Shown piece by piece: positions 42,893-51,349 of a stretch of 64,000 nucleotides of DNA; the first letter of the stretch is position 1, and each line of letters begins with the position of its first letter. Source of the stretch: an uncultured Pseudomonadota bacterium (GTDB lineage Bacteria; Pseudomonadota; Alphaproteobacteria; Acetobacterales; Acetobacteraceae); NCBI GenBank assembly GCA_963830565.1, contig CAWHMO010000016.1, forward strand, positions 26,763 through 90,762, read 5' to 3'. Position numbers and translations under genes: made by a program. The notes beneath the pieces are model-generated. The model worked only from the letters and a program-made list of their open reading frames with translations. It was not told the origin of the DNA and made no database searches.

Positions 42893-43216
42893 ATCTTCTC
42901 TGAATCTCCGATGGGTCTTTTCCCGCGCGGCTATGATGCCGGAAAGAAGGTGCTCGGCCGCAAGCGGCACGCGATGGTCGACACCGATGGCCGCCCGCTG
43001 GTGCTGCAAGTGCATCCCGCCTCCGTCCAGGACCGCGACGGTGCCGTCCCGCTGCTGAAGACGTCTCGTCGCAGCTTTCCCTTTGTCGAGCGTGCCTTTG
43101 CCGACACCGCCTATGCGGCCGAGCGCGTCGCCGACGCCACCTGCATCGCCATCGAGATCGTCCGCAAACCCGCTGATCAGGTCGGCTTTGCCGTCCATCC
43201 GCGCCGCTGGGTGGTG
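42893..43216 (+). pseudogene. IS5-family DDE transposase gene remnant, part 1 (5'-truncated, interrupted)
   Basis: PRGYDAGKKVLGRKRHAMVDTDGRPLVLQVHPASVQDRDG...FADTAYAAE...HPRRWVV matches the IS5-family catalytic region. Homology stops abruptly at 43216. Confidence 0.8.
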
Positions 43217-43236
43217 ATCGACTGTACAAATTTGCC
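43216..43236. repeat. left terminal inverted repeat of the serine-recombinase element
   Basis: GATCGACTGTACAAATTTGCC compared with the reverse complement of the right end, GATCGACTGTACAATCTTGCC: 19 of 21 positions are identical. Confidence 0.8.
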
Positions 43237-43357
43237 AAGCCGAGTTTCGAGTGGCTGGAGGCCATCGCGCGCGAGGAACTGCGTGCTCTGGGGTATGCGT
43301 GCCGCCAGGCTGGGTTGAGGCTCCATCGGCTGCCCCCGCCGCCCGGGGGGTCTGCCG

Positions 43358-43555
43358 ATGGAGGAGCGAATGGTCCAAGCCAAGGATCACCCTCGCTTGG
43401 AGCTGCGGGAGTTGTTCGAGACGACCCGATTGGGCCCGCAGTGCCTGATCAAAGCCTACGTCCACTTGATCCCGATCCGGCGCGTGAAGGCCGGATGCAC
43501 CGGGCAGGAACGAGCGGACGCGCTGTCGCGAAAGAGCGGAGGTAAGCATGCCTGA
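43358..43555 (+). CDS. hypothetical 65-aa ORF inside the element, overlapping the recombinase start
   Basis: MEERMVQAKDHPRLELRELFETTRLGPQCLIKAYVHLIPIRR.... I recognise no family. A G6 run just upstream (about 43335-43345) could hide a longer ORF (FAKPSFEWLEAIAREELRALGY...). Confidence 0.3.
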   Translation: MEERMVQAKDHPRLELRELFETTRLGPQCLIKAYVHLIPIRRVKAGCTGQERADALSRKSGGKHA

Positions 43556-45217
43556 GCGTCATGTCGCGTTCTATGCGCGCGTCTCGACCGAGAGCCAGGC
43601 GCACGACAACACCATTGCCAGTCAGGTGAGCGCTCTTCGCGAGCGGATCGCCGCCGATGGCGGGCAACTCGAGCCCGATCACGCCTACACTGATGAGGGT
43701 TACAGCGGCTCTGTCCTGATCCGCCCGGCGCTGGAGCGGCTGCGCGATGCGGTAGCGGCCGCGAGCATCCAGCAGATCTACGTTCTCGCGCCCGATCGCC
43801 TTGCCCGCCGCTATGCCCATCAGGCCTTGCTGATGGAGGAGTTCCATCGTGCGGGCGCCGAGGTGGTGTTCCTGAACCGGCCGATCGGCGGCACGGCCGA
43901 GGACGATCTCTTGTTGCAGATGCAGGGTGTGATCGCCGAGTACCGAGCGTGCCAAGATCCTGGAGCGAGGCCGGCGGGGACGCCGTCACGCGGCGCGTTC
44001 GGGGCTGCTCAGCGCGTTCACCACCGCCCCGTTTGGCTATCGCTACGTGCCCAAGGATCAGGGCGGCGGGATGGCGCGCTTCGAAGTGATTCCGGATGAG
44101 GCCCGCTTCGTGCGGCTCATCTTCGCCTGGATCGGGTTGGAGCGGCTGAGCCTGCGCGAAGTCTGCCGCCGCTTGCAGCAGGCCGGCGTTCCCAACCGAC
44201 GAGGACAGGGGCTGTGGTATGCCTCGACCTTGCACGGCATGCTGACCAACACGGCCTATATCGGGCGGGCCGTCTATGGCCATTCCCGCTACCTGCCTGC
44301 GCGCCCGCGCTCGCGGCCGATCCGGGGGCATCCCCATCCTCCCGTGCGCCCGACGGCGCGCGTCGCTGTGTCACGCGAGGAGTGGATCGAGGTGCCCGTG
44401 CCTGCGTTGGTTGACGAAGCGGTGTTCGCGGCGGCTCGGGCCCAACTCGTCGAGAATCGCCAACGCAAACGCGACGGCCTGCGCGGCCCCCGCTGGCTGT
44501 TGCAGGGACTGACCGTGTGTCGCCAGTGCGGGTATACCTATTATGGCAAGGCCCTCCCGAGGTCGCGTGCGGATCCCTCGAAATGCGGGTATCGCCAGTA
44601 TCGCTGCCTGGGCACGGACGGGTATCGGTTCGGTGGCACCGCACCGTGTAGCAACAGGACCGTCCGAGCCGAGCATCTCGAGCAGGCTGTATGGGAGCGA
44701 GTGTGCGCCCTTCTACAGAACCCCAGCAGGGTTGGAGATGAATACCGACGCCGGGTGCGCCAGGCAGGCGAGGGCGCCGTCAAGTCGGACGAACTGGTGC
44801 AGCTTGAGCGACAAAGGGCAGCCCTGCAGCGCGGAATTGGGCGGCTGATCGACAGCTATGCCGCTGGCGTGATCGATCGTTCCGAGTTCGAGCCGCGCAT
44901 CACCGGGCTCAAAGCGCGCGTCGCTCAGTTGCAGGAGCAACAGCGGGCAGCGGCTGACGTGGCGAACGCGGAGCGTGAGCTGACGCTGGTTATCGGTCAG
45001 CTCGAGGATTTCGCCAGCAAGGTCCGCCACAGCCTGGAGAGCCTCGACTGGCTCAGCATACGGGAAATCATCCGAACCCTCGTCCGGCGGATCGAGATCG
45101 ACGGCGATCAGGTCGAAGTCATCTTTCGGGTTCCCCCACCGGTCGGCTCCGGCGGCCCATCTTGGCCCGGTCCGGCCAGCGGCGAACCACCAGCCAGGCA
45201 AGATTGTACAGTCGATC
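43548..45217 (+). pseudogene. large serine recombinase (resolvase domain + recombinase domain + Zn-ribbon + coiled coil), one frameshift, no in-element stop
   Basis: GGAGG lies 6 nt upstream of ATG 43548. AFYARVSTESQ carries the catalytic Ser. The frame switches after ...GVIAEY at 43943-43946 and resumes as ERAKILERGRRG...FGYRY... in ORF 44047..45921. CRQCGYTYYGK...YRCLG is the Zn ribbon. The ORF stays open through the right end. Confidence 0.8.
45197..45217. repeat. right terminal inverted repeat of the serine-recombinase element
   Basis: GGCAAGATTGTACAGTCGATC. See the left repeat. Confidence 0.8.
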
Positions 45218-45355
45218 GTCGAGAGGACGATCGGTTGGCTCAACCGCTGTCGCCGCCTCGCCAAGGACTTCGAGACTACCATCGAGTCCGCGACAGCCTT
45301 CCTCTACGCCGCCTCAGCCATGCTCCTCATCAGGCGCATTGCTCGTTGCACATGA
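45218..45355 (+). pseudogene. IS5-family transposase gene remnant, part 2 (C-terminus)
   Basis: The same coordinate frame as part 1 reads VERTIGWLNRCRRLAKDFETTIESATAFLYAASAMLLIRRIARCT*, the canonical IS5-family C-terminal tail. TGA at 45353-45355. Confidence 0.8.
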
Positions 45356-45369
45356 GTTCAGAGTCAACT

Positions 45370-46152
45370 TTAGGTGGGGAGCATCCCAGCGCCTGCGGAA
45401 GCCTGGCCGATGATGACGTTGCCAGAAACGCTCCTGCCAAACAGGCTGGCGTTGTGCAGGCTTATGTCGATCGCCTGGGTGGTGATGCCTACTGGCGTGA
45501 TCGTCTTGTCGAGTCCGTTGGAGATGAGGTCGGATACAGTTTGCCGATCGAGGGTCACGGTGACGATCGGGCTCGAGAACAGAACCGTATTGGGCGCGGC
45601 GTCGCCCGAGAACGTCAGGGTCTTTCCGATCAAGGCTCCGCTCAGGCTCAGCGAGCCAAAGCCAGCCTCGCCGCTGACGAAACTCCTGTCCATTCCGTAG
45701 ATATGCGAATACGTCGCACTCGAATGGATGTGGCTTGCCGAGACCGACAATCCCAGCAGCGAGAGAATGCCGCGAGGGAGCAAAGGATTATCGGTGAGCA
45801 GGAATTCGGCCGACCCGACGCTCGCCTCACCGGTCGCGGAAACGGAATCAATGCCCATCCCGGCGGAGGTCGCGTTCGTGCCGAGTCCCGTGGCGTGGAT
45901 CTGCAAGGTCGGATTAAGTGAACTTCCGGGCTCGAGGCTGAGGGTCTGGTCCAGGTGGTCCACGATCTGGGCTTTGTCATAGGTGGGTGGGGCACTACCT
46001 TCGACATGGGCGATCGGACCGAAATCGAGCGCCTTACCACCGGGGGCAAGATGAACGGCAAGTCCGTCTGCAGAACTCGATGCGATTGACACCGGGGTGG
46101 TCCGAGGTATCGGCGGTATCGCGGGCGGCATTTCCGGGAGGGAGGTGGACAT
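45370..46152 (-). CDS. hypothetical protein (260 aa), Ser/Thr/Gly-rich, beta-rich appearance
   Basis: ATG ORF preceded by AAGGTGA, with moderately lower G+C. I see no signal peptide or family. Its stop lies 15 nt from the IS5 remnant. Confidence 0.5.
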   Translation of the reverse strand: MSTSLPEMPPAIPPIPRTTPVSIASSSADGLAVHLAPGGKALDFGPIAHVEGSAPPTYDKAQIVDHLDQTLSLEPGSSLNPTLQIHATGLGTNATSAGMGIDSVSATGEASVGSAEFLLTDNPLLPRGILSLLGLSVSASHIHSSATYSHIYGMDRSFVSGEAGFGSLSLSGALIGKTLTFSGDAAPNTVLFSSPIVTVTLDRQTVSDLISNGLDKTITPVGITTQAIDISLHNASLFGRSVSGNVIIGQASAGAGMLPT

Positions 46153-46311: not shown

Positions 46312-47748
46312 TCAGACCGAGTAGTACATCTCGAACTCGACCGGATGCGGCGTGTGCTCGAAGCGGTACACCTCGCTCCACTTCAGCTCGATGTAGCTCT
46401 CGATCTGGTCGGTGCTGAATACGTCGCCAGCGAGCAGGAACTCGCGGTCGCCCTCGAGCGAGGTCAGCGCCTCGCGCAGGCTGCCGCATACGGTGGGGAT
46501 GCCCTTCAGCTCCTCGGGCGGCAGATCGTAGAGATCCTTGTCCATCGGGTCGCCCGGATGAATCTTGTTGCGGATGCCGTCCAGGCCGGCCATCAGCATC
46601 GCCGCGAAGGCGAGGTAAGGGTTGGCGCCCGGATCGGGGAACCGCACCTCGACGCGCTTGGCTTTCGGGTTCGTGGCATACGGGATGCGGCACGAGGCCG
46701 AGCGGTTGCGCGCCGAATAGGCCAGCAGCACCGGCGCCTCGAATCCGGGGATCAGGCGCTTGTAGCTGTTGGTCAGCGGGTTGGTGAACGCGTTCAGCGC
46801 CTTGGCGTGCTTGATGATGCCGCCGATGTAGTACAGCGCCGATTCGGACAGATCGGCGTAGCCGTTGCCCGCGAACAGCGGTCTGCCGCCCTTCCAGATC
46901 GACTGGTGGACGTGCATCCCCGAGCCGTTGTCGCCGTACACCGGCTTCGGCATGAACGTCGCGGTCTTGCCGTAGCTGTGCGCCACGTTGTGGATGCAGT
47001 ACTTGTAGATCTGCAAGTGGTCGGCCAATTGCACCAGCGGGCCGAACTTCATGCCCAGCTCGTGCTGGCTCTGCGCCACCTCGTGGTGGTGCTTCTCGAT
47101 AACCACGCCCATCTCGCCCATCGTGGACAGCATCTCGGCGCGCAGATCGCTCTCGGAATCCACCGGCGGGACCGGGAAGTAGCCACCCTTCACCAACGGG
47201 CGGTGGCCCATGTTGCCTTCCGGGTAGTCCTTCAGCGACGCTTGCGGCCCCTCCTGGCTGTCGAGCTGGTACATCGCGTAATTGCCGCCGACACCGAACT
47301 TCACGCTGTCGAAAATGAAGAACTCGGCTTCGGGGCCGAAGAAGGCGGTATCGCCGATGCCGCTGGCCTTCAGGTACTGCTCGGCCTTCTTGGCGGTGGA
47401 GCGAGGGTCGCGGTTGTAGGGTTGGCCGGTGGACGGCTCGATGATGTCGCAGAACAGGATCAGGCTGGGCTTGGCGGCGAACGGGTCCATCACCCCCGTC
47501 TGGGGGTCCGGCATCAGGATCATGTCGGACTCGTTGATCGCCTTCCAGCCGGCGATCGAGGAGCCGTCGAACATGATGCCATCGCGGAACGCCTCCTCGT
47601 CGATGGTGGAGACGTGCTGGGCGGTGTGCTGCCACTTCCCGCGCGGGTCGGTGAACCGCAGGTCGACATATTCGGCGGAATGCTCGTTCAGCATTTCCAT
47701 GACGTGGCCGACCGCGTCGGCGTTCCCGCTGCCAGGATTCTTCGCCAT
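46312..47748 (-). CDS. glnA: glutamine synthetase, type I
   Basis: [27 protein letters not shown], the adenylylation-site region NLYDLPPEE (here DLYDLPPEE), and HHHEV. The start may be ATG 47748 or TTG 47763. Confidence 0.93.
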
Positions 47749-47813
47749 CCCTCTTGCCCTCAATCTTCCTGTTTGCGCCGACCGTTTAATCGCTTCCGTT
47801 TCTGCCCGAAAGC

Positions 47814-48155
<342 letters not shown>

Positions 48156-50588: not shown

Positions 50589-51349
50589 TTACCTCGTTGC
50601 GATGATGGTGGCTGCGAGGCTGATGTTGGCACGGAAGCTTTCGTCGGTCTTGTCGTAGCGGGTGGCGATGGCTCGGAACTCCTTCAGCTTGGCGAAGAAG
50701 TTCTCGATCAGGTGGCGCCAGCGATACATGGCCTTGTCATAGGCGATGATCGTATTGCGGTTGGATTTGGGTGGGATGACGGCGACGGCGCCACGGTCAT
50801 CGAGGTCCGCACGCAGCCAATCGGCGTCAAACGCCTTGTCACCGAGCAGGGCGTCGAAAGTGATGTCTGCGATGAGCGGCGCGACCCCTACGATGTCGTG
50901 GCGCTGTCCGGGCAAGAGCACGAAGCGGACCAGATTTCCAAGCGCGTCCACCAGCGCGACGATCTTGGTCGTCAGCCCGCCTCGCGAGCGTCCGATGGCC
51001 TGATTGTGAGTCCCCCCTTTGCGCCGCTCGCCTTCTGATGGGCGGTGACGATCGTGCCGTCGATCAGGGCGTATTCGAAATCCGGCTCGTCGGACAAGCG
51101 CTCGAAGAGGCGCTCGAAGACGCCCGCCCGCACCCAGCGGCGGAAGCGCTGGAACACGCTGTTCCAGTGCCCGAACTCAGGCGGCAGGTCGCGCCACGGC
51201 GATCCCGCCCGCACGCGCCACAGAACCGCTTCCAGGAACAGCCGGGTGTCCTTCGCCGTCACTCCGCGATCCGACGCCTTGCCCGGCAACAGCAGGGCCA
51301 TCTTCTCCCAAGCCGTGTCGCTGATCACAAATCGTCCCCTGTCCACCAA
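50589..51349 (-). CDS. IS5/IS427-group transposase OrfAB (orfA 50972..51349, orfB 50589..~51017, joined by -1 frameshift)
   Basis: OrfA reads LLPGKASDRGVTAKDTRLFLEAVLWRVRAGSPWRDLP. The -1 frame continues GGTHNQAIGRSRGGLTTKIVALVDALGNLVRFVLLPGQRHD...RWRHLIENFFAKLKEFRAIATRYDK, the DDE region. Confidence 0.85.
51011..51020 (-). promoter_or_regulatory. putative programmed -1 frameshift site of the IS transposase
   Basis: The minus strand reads A-AAG-GGG-GG at exactly the orfA/orfB frame junction. Confidence 0.5.

Follow-up and report, generated by a model that had tools for sequence, protein, structure and literature searches.

How an IS5-family transposase gene came to be split by 2 kb of DNA that encodes a large serine recombinase (LSR) and little else is the question raised by a locus between positions 42926 and 45355 of a 64,000-nucleotide stretch of contig CAWHMO010000016.1, from an uncultured member of the Acetobacteraceae (this stretch, at its full length, is called the window below). 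The explanation that best accounts for the data as a whole, to which we assign a probability of about 80%, is that the intervening DNA is a decayed copy of a ~2.0-kb element resembling an insertion sequence (IS), which would use its LSR as the sole enzyme for excision from, and integration into, IS5 genes.

The interrupted IS5 gene and the unit within it

The features to which we refer are the following (ORF, open reading frame):

43216-45217, + strand: mobile unit of 2,002 bp with inverted ends and a GT on each outer side
43216-43236, + strand: left terminal inverted repeat (TIR), GATCGACTGTACAAATTTGCC, the P' half of the predicted attP
45197-45217, + strand: right TIR, GGCAAGATTGTACAGTCGATC, the P half of the predicted attP
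43214-43215, + strand: GT, left copy of the crossover dinucleotide, in the empty site part of the IS5 codon GTC (V)
45218-45219, + strand: GT, right copy of the crossover dinucleotide; GT flanks are also found in most relatives
43548-45217, + strand: LSR gene body, 556 codons after repair, a pseudogene here
43370-43555, + strand: small ORF, 61 amino acids from the likelier start, 65 from 43358
43216-43545, + strand: tail segment, 109 codons plus TAA (43543-43545), in the junction frame, ending 2 nt before the recombinase ATG
42926-43213, + strand: upstream piece of the IS5-family transposase remnant, amino acids ~130-225, ...GYDAGKK...HPRRWV
45220-45355, + strand: downstream piece of this remnant, ERTIGWLNRCRRLAKDFE...CT and stop, with DNA homology on to ~45374

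An initial annotation of the window, made from its letters alone, had described a 2001-bp segment ending with an inverted copy of its own beginning. The inverted repeats are real, their 21 nt pairing at 19/21 positions, but the segment starts at 43216 rather than 43217 and the unit measures 2,002 bp. The transposase frame was correctly seen to reach ...HPRRWVV at the left repeat and to resume as VERTIGWLNRCRRLAKDFE...CT and stop at 45218. A 14-nt core of the repeat occurs at two sites only in the window, against a chance expectation of 0.09 matches, and the window contains a single copy of the element. Arms homologous to the left one (GTACAAT.TTGCC) are present in all relatives; the right repeat lies within the recombinase ORF, where it encodes ...RQDCTVD.

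Removal of the 2,002 bp together with one GT rejoins the two transposase pieces into a 152-amino acid fragment that matches Pfam DDE_Tnp_1 (5e-20) and aligns without gaps with intact IS5 genes on many plasmids. Its score against NCBIfam transpos_IS5_3, 110 bits, is exactly the cutoff and covers profile positions 114-257 of 258 only. The remnant spans amino acids ~130-268 of a ~271-amino acid transposase and starts ~75 nt past an rmuC-like gene; the upstream piece, which lacks the left IS end and ~130 N-terminal codons, aligns with amino acids 130-226 of an intact 271-amino acid IS5 transposase (L050) at 82% identity (tblastn). Intact homologues read HPRRWVVERT/C over TGGGT[CG]-GT-CGA in the two genes that were read directly, one on Novosphingobium pSA3 (HPRRWVVERTFAW over CGCTGGGTCGTCGAGCGC) and one on a Rhodovastum plasmid (HPRRWVVERCFAW over CGCTGGGTGGTCGAAAGG). 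The empty site reconstructed from these sequences is ...TGGGTG-GT-CGAG..., and the inserted DNA comprises the element and an additional GT, 2,002 + 2 = 2,004 bp. The sequence RRWVVVERT that the annotation predicted across the proposed site is in reality RRWVVERT, with one V fewer; the boundary is moved by the 2-bp crossover and the claim of an insertion stands. What does not stand is that the insertion was made in frame. Intact relatives add 2,001 + 2 = 2,003 bp, and the window copy appears in frame because of an extra C in its recombinase gene. The possibility that the IS5 frame runs on into the tail segment was rejected, since this frame is shifted by one nucleotide where it crosses into the left end and meets a stop at 43318.

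The content of the unit is as first described, a 65-codon ORF and the LSR. The latter matches Resolvase (PF00239, 5.8e-31, residues 6-152, with the catalytic motif YARVSTESQ), Recombinase (PF07508, 6.4e-17) and Zn_ribbon_recom (PF13408, 8.8e-11). In the PDB, it matches the catalytic domain of TP901-1 integrase (1.1e-10), and its residues 297-524 match the C-terminal region of A118 integrase (4KIS); an AlphaFold2 model shows long helices at residues 413-497, with a local confidence score (pLDDT) > 90 at residues ~420-460. With its catalytic domain, recombinase domain, zinc ribbon and inserted coiled coil, the protein is a member of the LSR class. It falls in no named NCBIfam family, the best matches, CcrB and XisF (second, 83 bits vs a cutoff of 375), being far below their cutoffs. 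The frame break noticed at 43943-43946 is due to one surplus C at 43943/43944, whose deletion restores ...VIAEYERAKILERGRR..., and the closest database relative (P0001, 94% identical) is intact and without a frame break. The repaired ORF indeed reaches the right end without a stop and continues to 45921. With a frameshifted LSR and a truncated IS5 host, the window copy is dead.

The small ORF has a GGAGG 6 nt before its ATG, and its stop overlaps the recombinase start (ATGCCTGA). In 13 aligned orthologues of 57-67 amino acids, residues F16, E17, T19, R20, L26, A29, Y30 and P35 are invariant, and the DNA alignment contains synonymous third-position changes. No Pfam or PHROG family matches it (best PHROG E = 0.017); it could be an accessory or directionality factor. 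No further gene, terminator-like site or sigma-70-like promoter was found in the integrated window copy.

Relatives, target site and mobility

Contigs from one genome per species were scanned for related loci, of which 46 were found, and the ends could be defined in about 30. These are units of 1,971-2,062 bp with TIRs of ~21 bp, homologous inverted ends and a repeated flanking dinucleotide. In plasmid DNA, 2-kb units of ~70% identity were found in Nitrobacter hamburgensis, Microvirga, Skermanella, Rhizobium and Methylocystis. Further copies with the same termini, which the initial annotation had proposed to look for, therefore exist in quantity, and each defined locus is a unit of ~2.0 kb. 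A protein search gave > 7,000 relatives with E<=1e-20; the top 120 are mostly on contigs of 2-4 kb, as would be expected of repeats that break assemblies. The ~2.0-kb units are found in several families of the Alphaproteobacteria, as well as on many short contigs from metagenomes. One cluster of proteins at 90% identity contains lengths of 557, 608, 611, 618, 619, 621 and 751 amino acids, a variation explained by the same gene reading out into different flanks.

Several genomes contain more than one copy. One metagenome-assembled genome (MAG) has 6 related loci. Ends are defined for 5, which are > 99.4% identical to each other; four of these occupy the same IS5 type on different contigs, and the fifth is in another IS5 (89% identical flank). 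A 99.2-99.4% identical copy in a second MAG is in a non-IS5 site, and there are 3 loci in another MAG. Near-identical copies in different contexts indicate recent independent insertions rather than a single ancestral event carried along by IS5, and IS5-mediated spread of the composite probably also occurs. In a Dankookia sp., a 2,005-bp contig (L006) consists of exactly GT + the 2,001-bp element + GT, which we read as a collapsed multi-copy repeat with differing flanks. The unit has the attributes of an insertion sequence: it is short, is bounded by TIRs, carries the LSR and the small ORF only, and is present in several copies per genome at different sites.

Most of these copies share a target. 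Defined ends are available for 27 DNA loci, 19 of them in the IS5 site and eight outside IS5. The same IS5 site is occupied in Belnapia, Dankookia, Microvirga, Methylobacterium, Azospirillum and several MAGs, and the Nitrobacter plasmid copy (67% DNA identity) lies between KRWIV and ERTFAW in another IS5 gene, flanked by GT at either end. An independent census came from the read-through tails of the recombinases, with 89 classifiable cluster representatives: 67 tails run into an IS5 3' end in the +1 frame and 2 in frame, 11 are antisense to the IS5 5' side, and 9 are other sequences. As judged from these tails, TGG-RTN-GT-CGA-RCG of an IS5-type gene, over the codons W-[IV]-V-E-R, is the site of ~90% of close relatives, which lie there in either orientation. 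The initial proposal of a minimal, IS-sized element carrying only an LSR and targeting another IS is supported by this concentration in the same IS5 codons. The host sequence at the site varies (tggattGT, tgggtgGT, tggatcGT, tgggttGT, tgggtcGT), and other sites are used by a subclade (L003, L015-17) characterised by CCACAATG ends. In the longer contigs L054, L057, L058, L060 and L061, the host IS5 encodes DUF4096 at the N-terminus and then DDE_Tnp_1, often divided between two called ORFs; by sequence, the hosts span several IS5 subgroups, some with a layout like that of programmed frameshifting.

A conserved central dinucleotide, which the initial annotation had also proposed to look for, is found as GT at both ends in the window and in most relatives. 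Sequence comparison gives an identical core on both sides, mostly GT, AC/AC in reversed copies and AT/AT in L002 and L015; the core of L016 is mismatched (AC/AT). The reversed copies are L005 (Roseicella aerolata, 157-2157) and L053 (2102-4163), both with AC on each side relative to the LSR gene, and the reversed protein tails (n=11) include P0027, P0037, P0048, P0066-68 and P0073-74. To judge from these loci, the target always gives GT on the sense strand of the transposase gene, and the body of the element is inserted either way round.

A more distant clade, at 33-45% amino acid identity, consists of 2.2-kb LSR-only elements with 22-nt inverted ends, CCCTGAACGCAAAGGGTAACTT or GTACACAAAAGGTAACTTTTGC. 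It includes six copies in Nitrococcus mobilis Nb-231 (L031, L032, L036, L040, L041, L043), and members in Meso-/Neomesorhizobium (L034, L035, L037) and in Opitutales MAGs (L027-L030). The flanks of this clade have a partly palindromic look and showed no consistent 2-bp repeat to fix the crossover.

Predicted excision and the open-ended recombinase gene

Serine integrases act by 2-bp staggered cuts and subunit rotation, with a core dinucleotide common to the four sites. By the same chemistry, the LSR would cut both ends of the element at the 2-bp core, and the element would leave as a ~2,003-bp circle, restoring the IS5 gene exactly. The joined ends would form a near-perfect palindromic attP, ...TTGTACAG.CG.TC-GT-GA.CG.CTGTACAA..., and the predicted circle junction is ...TTGTACAGGCGGTC-GT-GACCGCCTGTACAA...; that predicted for L007/L008 is ...GGCAAGATTGTACAGGCGGTC-GT-GACCGCCTGTACAATCTTGCC..., with the peptide ...DCTGGRDRLYNLAR... 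across the join in L007, and ...TGGATT-GT-CGAGCGC... is the predicted restored IS5 site. Intact copies are present in Belnapia rosea CPCC 100156 (L007), Dankookia rubra JCM30602 (L008), Microvirga ossetica V5/3m (L002) and Methylobacterium carpenticola ID0610 (L021). The circle would then be reinserted by the LSR at the GT in TGG-RTN-GT-CGA-RCG of another IS5-type gene, IS5 elements serving as harmless, multi-copy, horizontally travelling landing pads. The circular form and attP x attB catalysis by the LSR are predicted from the arrangement of the ends and the core. A junction promoter was considered and rejected, the only candidate by eye being TTGTAC-N19-TACAAT, with a weak -35 and a long spacer.

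The LSR gene itself provides a further reason to consider a circle. No intact member has a recombinase stop within the element; the ORF crosses the right repeat and ends at a variable distance outside, and the same absence of an internal stop is seen in the distant clade. When the right end, the core and the left end are joined, the recombinase frame continues. In this junction frame there are 0 stops for 105-131 codons in 17/17 intact elements of the first set, compared with 1-2 and 2-6 in the other frames, and it is open to 2-6 nt before the gene's own ATG in 19/22 intact copies. The stop that closes it is always in the spacer between the Shine-Dalgarno sequence (SD) and the ATG, e.g. GGAGGTAAGCATG. 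The distance from the left end to this stop, 312-393 nt in six different lengths, is a multiple of 3 in every intact member. In the window, the 2,004-nt circle would contain a 666-codon ORF.

The sequence of the tail shows conservation as well as openness. Its proximal part, DRLYKFAKPSFEWLEAIAREELR, is conserved, and the first 23 codons fit DR.YN.A...F[ED]W...[ILV].R..LR, where YN.A is the repeat itself. Past the repeat, F, W, R and L of the tail are kept with synonymous changes, the Leu codons being CTG, TTG, CTC, CTA and CTT. The first 36 tail codons are uninterrupted in 22/22 intact copies, and synonymous codon-pair differences number 277 in the junction frame, vs 150 and 48 in the other two. 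To obtain a null expectation for openness, the protein of the overlapping small ORF was held fixed and its synonymous codons were resampled; this gave a chance of 3-25% per lineage, with a product of 3e-8 over seven lineages on the assumption, which does not fully hold, that these are independent.

These observations suggest a model for the role of the junction. Comparative sequence indicates that in the integrated element the ORF would lack a stop of its own and run into the flank, and that in the circle it would continue through the left end, gaining a conserved F-E-W helix and ~110 codons in most copies. The two states would then produce different isoforms, which could bias the reaction towards excision or integration, possibly with the help of the small ORF. 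It is unlikely that the target-encoded read-through tail is the true C-terminus, because such tails differ by orientation and target. The initial annotation had suggested that the C-terminus might be supplied across the element junction; the open junction frame agrees with this, and from it we infer translation across the junction. On balance we consider it probable that at least the proximal tail is so translated, and put the odds that the whole wrap-around ORF is functional at about even. The full proposal is that the LSR gene is circularly permuted, with a complete ORF of ~666 codons (2,001 nt of the ~2,003-bp circle), overlapping the conserved small ORF, existing in the circle only, and that the tail-less integrated isoform and the tail-bearing circle isoform, by themselves or together with the small ORF, set the direction of recombination; on the sequence evidence, its chances would be somewhat short of even.

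Two side observations concern the tail segment. Codon 37 of L057 (TGA) and codon 39 of L061 (TAA) are nonsense codons at the same tail position, AGT-[TGA/TAA]-TTT-GTC, where open relatives have CGA or CAA, and the rest of the frame is open in both; coincidence, a mutational hotspot or tolerance of a truncation could each account for this. P0166, a metagenome protein of 95 amino acids, is a deletion derivative, in which the tail segment's beginning, DRPYNRAKPGFEWSQTIERGQLR..., has been joined to the N-terminus of the recombinase, VAFYARVSTESQ. Sequences of this type indicate that internally deleted copies exist, which are possibly non-autonomous.

Elsewhere in the window, a 260-amino acid ORF (45370-46152, - strand) lies between the IS5 remnant and glnA/glnB (46312-48152), in a stretch of lower GC content (0.59-0.61 vs 0.65-0.70 nearby), and is overlapped on the opposite strand by the out-of-frame recombinase read-through to 45921. 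The sequence at 51014-51238 (- strand) weakly matches (34% over 83 amino acids) the N-terminal part (amino acids 50-131) of an IS5-family transposase; it may be another IS remnant and does not adjoin the element.

Competing explanations and known systems

A number of points weigh against the proposed cycle or against its circle-specific isoform. The evidence is sequence-based and the window copy is inactive. In JGI metagenome contigs, the query GGCANNATTGTAC-N18-GTACAATNNTGCC returned one unrelated AT-rich hairpin and no circle junction, and a scan of IMG/VR with a looser form of the junction returned nothing. No protein combining the LSR body with the tail was found among 154 relatives or 1.84 billion cluster representatives; a query of the latter with the tail only gave 17 matches, all of them ORFs called in integrated copies and most fused to upstream flank. 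In a second sample of five intact copies, the tails of L053 and L060 are open and three have one nonsense codon (37, 39, 68), in each case at a position occupied by a Gln or Arg codon in an open relative. The third-position excess in the tail is weak between close relatives, the Belnapia/Dankookia/Roseicella group excepted. Lastly, both orientations are found in one site, which the non-palindromic core of a canonical serine integrase should prevent. Since the attP arms are near-perfect palindromes, only the core is asymmetric, and a GT/GT pairing, which amounts to two G:T wobbles, might permit ligation in antiparallel synapses.

The same LSR-driven, IS-like element could also do without any circle-specific isoform, the left-end frame being open as a side effect of GC-rich sequence and of the overlap with the small ORF. 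This is a real possibility, if a doubtful one. It would account for the nonsense codons in 3/22 intact tails, the weak period-3 signal in close pairs, the single-lineage chance of openness of 3-25% and the lack of an LSR-plus-tail protein or a junction in the public data searched; in further agreement, AlphaFold2 run without an alignment on the 666-amino acid circular protein gave a mean pLDDT of 41, with the coiled coil alone confident and the tail uninformative, of low confidence and mostly disordered. What it leaves hard to explain is a gene without a stop in every member, even at 33-45% identity, the more so as the read-through tails are wholly different by orientation and target and thus not a selected C-terminus. 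The ~36 uninterrupted codons at the start of the tail, the F-[ED]-W...[ILV].R..L.R motif conserved through five Leu codons, and a frame kept over six left-end lengths to a stop that is always in the SD-ATG spacer likewise speak for a translated tail.

Other explanations dispense with an autonomous element altogether. The LSR unit might be a passenger that entered one ancestral IS5 once and spread by IS5 transposition only, for which the four copies in identical IS5 on separate contigs of one MAG would be fitting if IS5 transposase were supplied in trans. We consider this very improbable: the host IS5 are widely different around the site, with one flank only 89% identical, both orientations are seen, 99%-identical copies are found in a non-IS5 site, eight loci are outside IS5, and the insertion destroys the IS5 transposase gene. 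There is equally little to be said for a programmed gene-interrupting element like skin/SpoIVCA or the fdxN element/XisF, with the role of switching on the IS5 transposase by precise excision. Excision at the GT core would indeed restore the IS5 frame exactly, and XisF is the second-best NCBIfam match, though well under its cutoff, but the family has hundreds of unrelated IS5 variants as hosts, besides non-IS5 sites, is multi-copy with many decayed copies, as fits a selfish element, and brings no apparent benefit to the host. That the recombinase is the end of a larger element, such as a prophage, an integrative and conjugative element (ICE) or a genomic island, with incidental 21-bp repeats, can be given almost no credence, even if most characterised LSRs are phage or ICE integrases. 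The IS5 halves abut the repeats here and in 18 other loci, the reconstruction of the empty site, in which the flanks rejoin to a gapless IS5 frame, refutes it, about 30 homologous loci have the same 2.0-kb size, and the neighbours in the window are housekeeping genes, which we take from their translations to be an rmuC-like gene, glnA and glnB.

An autonomous LSR-driven element thus remains our preferred reading, and it would have several consequences. One mobile element would be parasitising and reversibly silencing another, which bears on the control of IS load and on the build-up of IS5 pseudogenes. To judge from protein counts, the family is abundant in soil- and plant-associated Alphaproteobacteria, where its proteins are annotated merely as "recombinase family protein"; the elements break assemblies, and their read-through ORFs create spurious recombinases of variable length in databases. 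A 2-kb integrase module with an attP of ~44 bp, palindromic, and an attB of ~16 bp is a type of part sought for genome engineering. The permuted ORF, if real, would be a compact solution to directionality, derived from gene topology without a separate directionality factor.

We found no description of an LSR-only, IS-sized, IS5-targeting family in the full-text literature, in a search to which ISfinder and subscription journals were external. The element is a serine-recombinase-driven transposable element and appears to represent an undescribed type of insertion sequence, parasitic on other ISs. The nearest precedents for its enzyme are Tn4451/Tn4453 (TnpX) and Tn5397 (TndX), LSR-moved transposons of 6-21 kb with cargo, a GA core and loosely defined targets; the circle junction of Tn4451 builds a promoter. 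As in Tn4451 and Tn5397, an LSR would be the sole transposase, with an expected route through a non-replicating circle and insertion at a 2-bp core that joins the ends to the target, but the element is only 2.0 kb, has no cargo, has mostly a GT core and uses a conserved coding motif as target, and its circle junction appears to complete an ORF rather than a promoter. In the TndX-like LSR clade, 63% of members have DUF4368 (PMC10083194), whereas the LSR described here has no DUF4368 match and its cores are GT, AC or AT. IS607 is likewise IS-sized and moved by a serine recombinase (PMC6188088); its TnpA is small, with an N-terminal DNA-binding and a C-terminal catalytic domain, and the element has no TIRs and little target specificity. 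By contrast, our LSR has 556-666 amino acids and an N-terminal catalytic domain, and the element has 21-bp TIRs and a strict target. With 28.5 bits against NCBIfam transpos_IS607, for a cutoff of 110, the LSR does not belong to IS607, and the element would add a second class of serine-recombinase IS beside it.

A small size and site-specific insertion in repeats are features shared with IS110/IS1111 and with IS911-type elements, as a circle stage and a junction that alters transposase expression would be. IS117 forms a minicircle, and IS911, IS2 and IS30 have circle-junction promoters. For IS110-type elements, target selection, circular intermediates and repetitive extragenic palindromic (REP) targets are treated in two reports (PMC11187229, PMC12288879). 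Unlike the element described here, IS110/IS1111 and IS911/IS2/IS30 use DEDD or DDE transposases, some of them RNA-guided, and their junction provides a promoter and not an ORF. As for the target, phiRv1, a ~10-kb mycobacterial prophage-like element, has an LSR, uses REP13E12 repeats as attB and has a separate excisionase (recombination directionality factor). The use of a repeated, mobile-like sequence as attB, with several landing sites per genome, is common to both, but the target of our element is a transposase coding motif and that of phiRv1 is not.

A recombination site inside a recombinase gene also has precedents, such as intP of the Myxococcus phage Mx8. The closest are the 'suicidal' integrases of SSV1, pTN3 and pT26-2, whose site is within the gene, so that a complete gene exists only in the free circle and gene, site and directionality form an all-in-one module (PMC8371274). 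These are tyrosine recombinases (Phage_integr_3) of archaeal viruses and plasmids, and self-disrupting recombinases were known in Archaea alone according to the same 2021 review (PMC8371274). As in that group, the right TIR lies inside the recombinase ORF and integration would alter the gene; unlike it, the enzyme is a serine recombinase, whose catalytic and DNA-binding domains would all stay together with the C-terminal tail alone detached, whereas splitting of the archaeal integrases takes away the catalytic part. If the permuted gene proves true, it would be the first self-splitting recombinase among the serine recombinases and, following that review, also the first in bacteria (PMC8371274).

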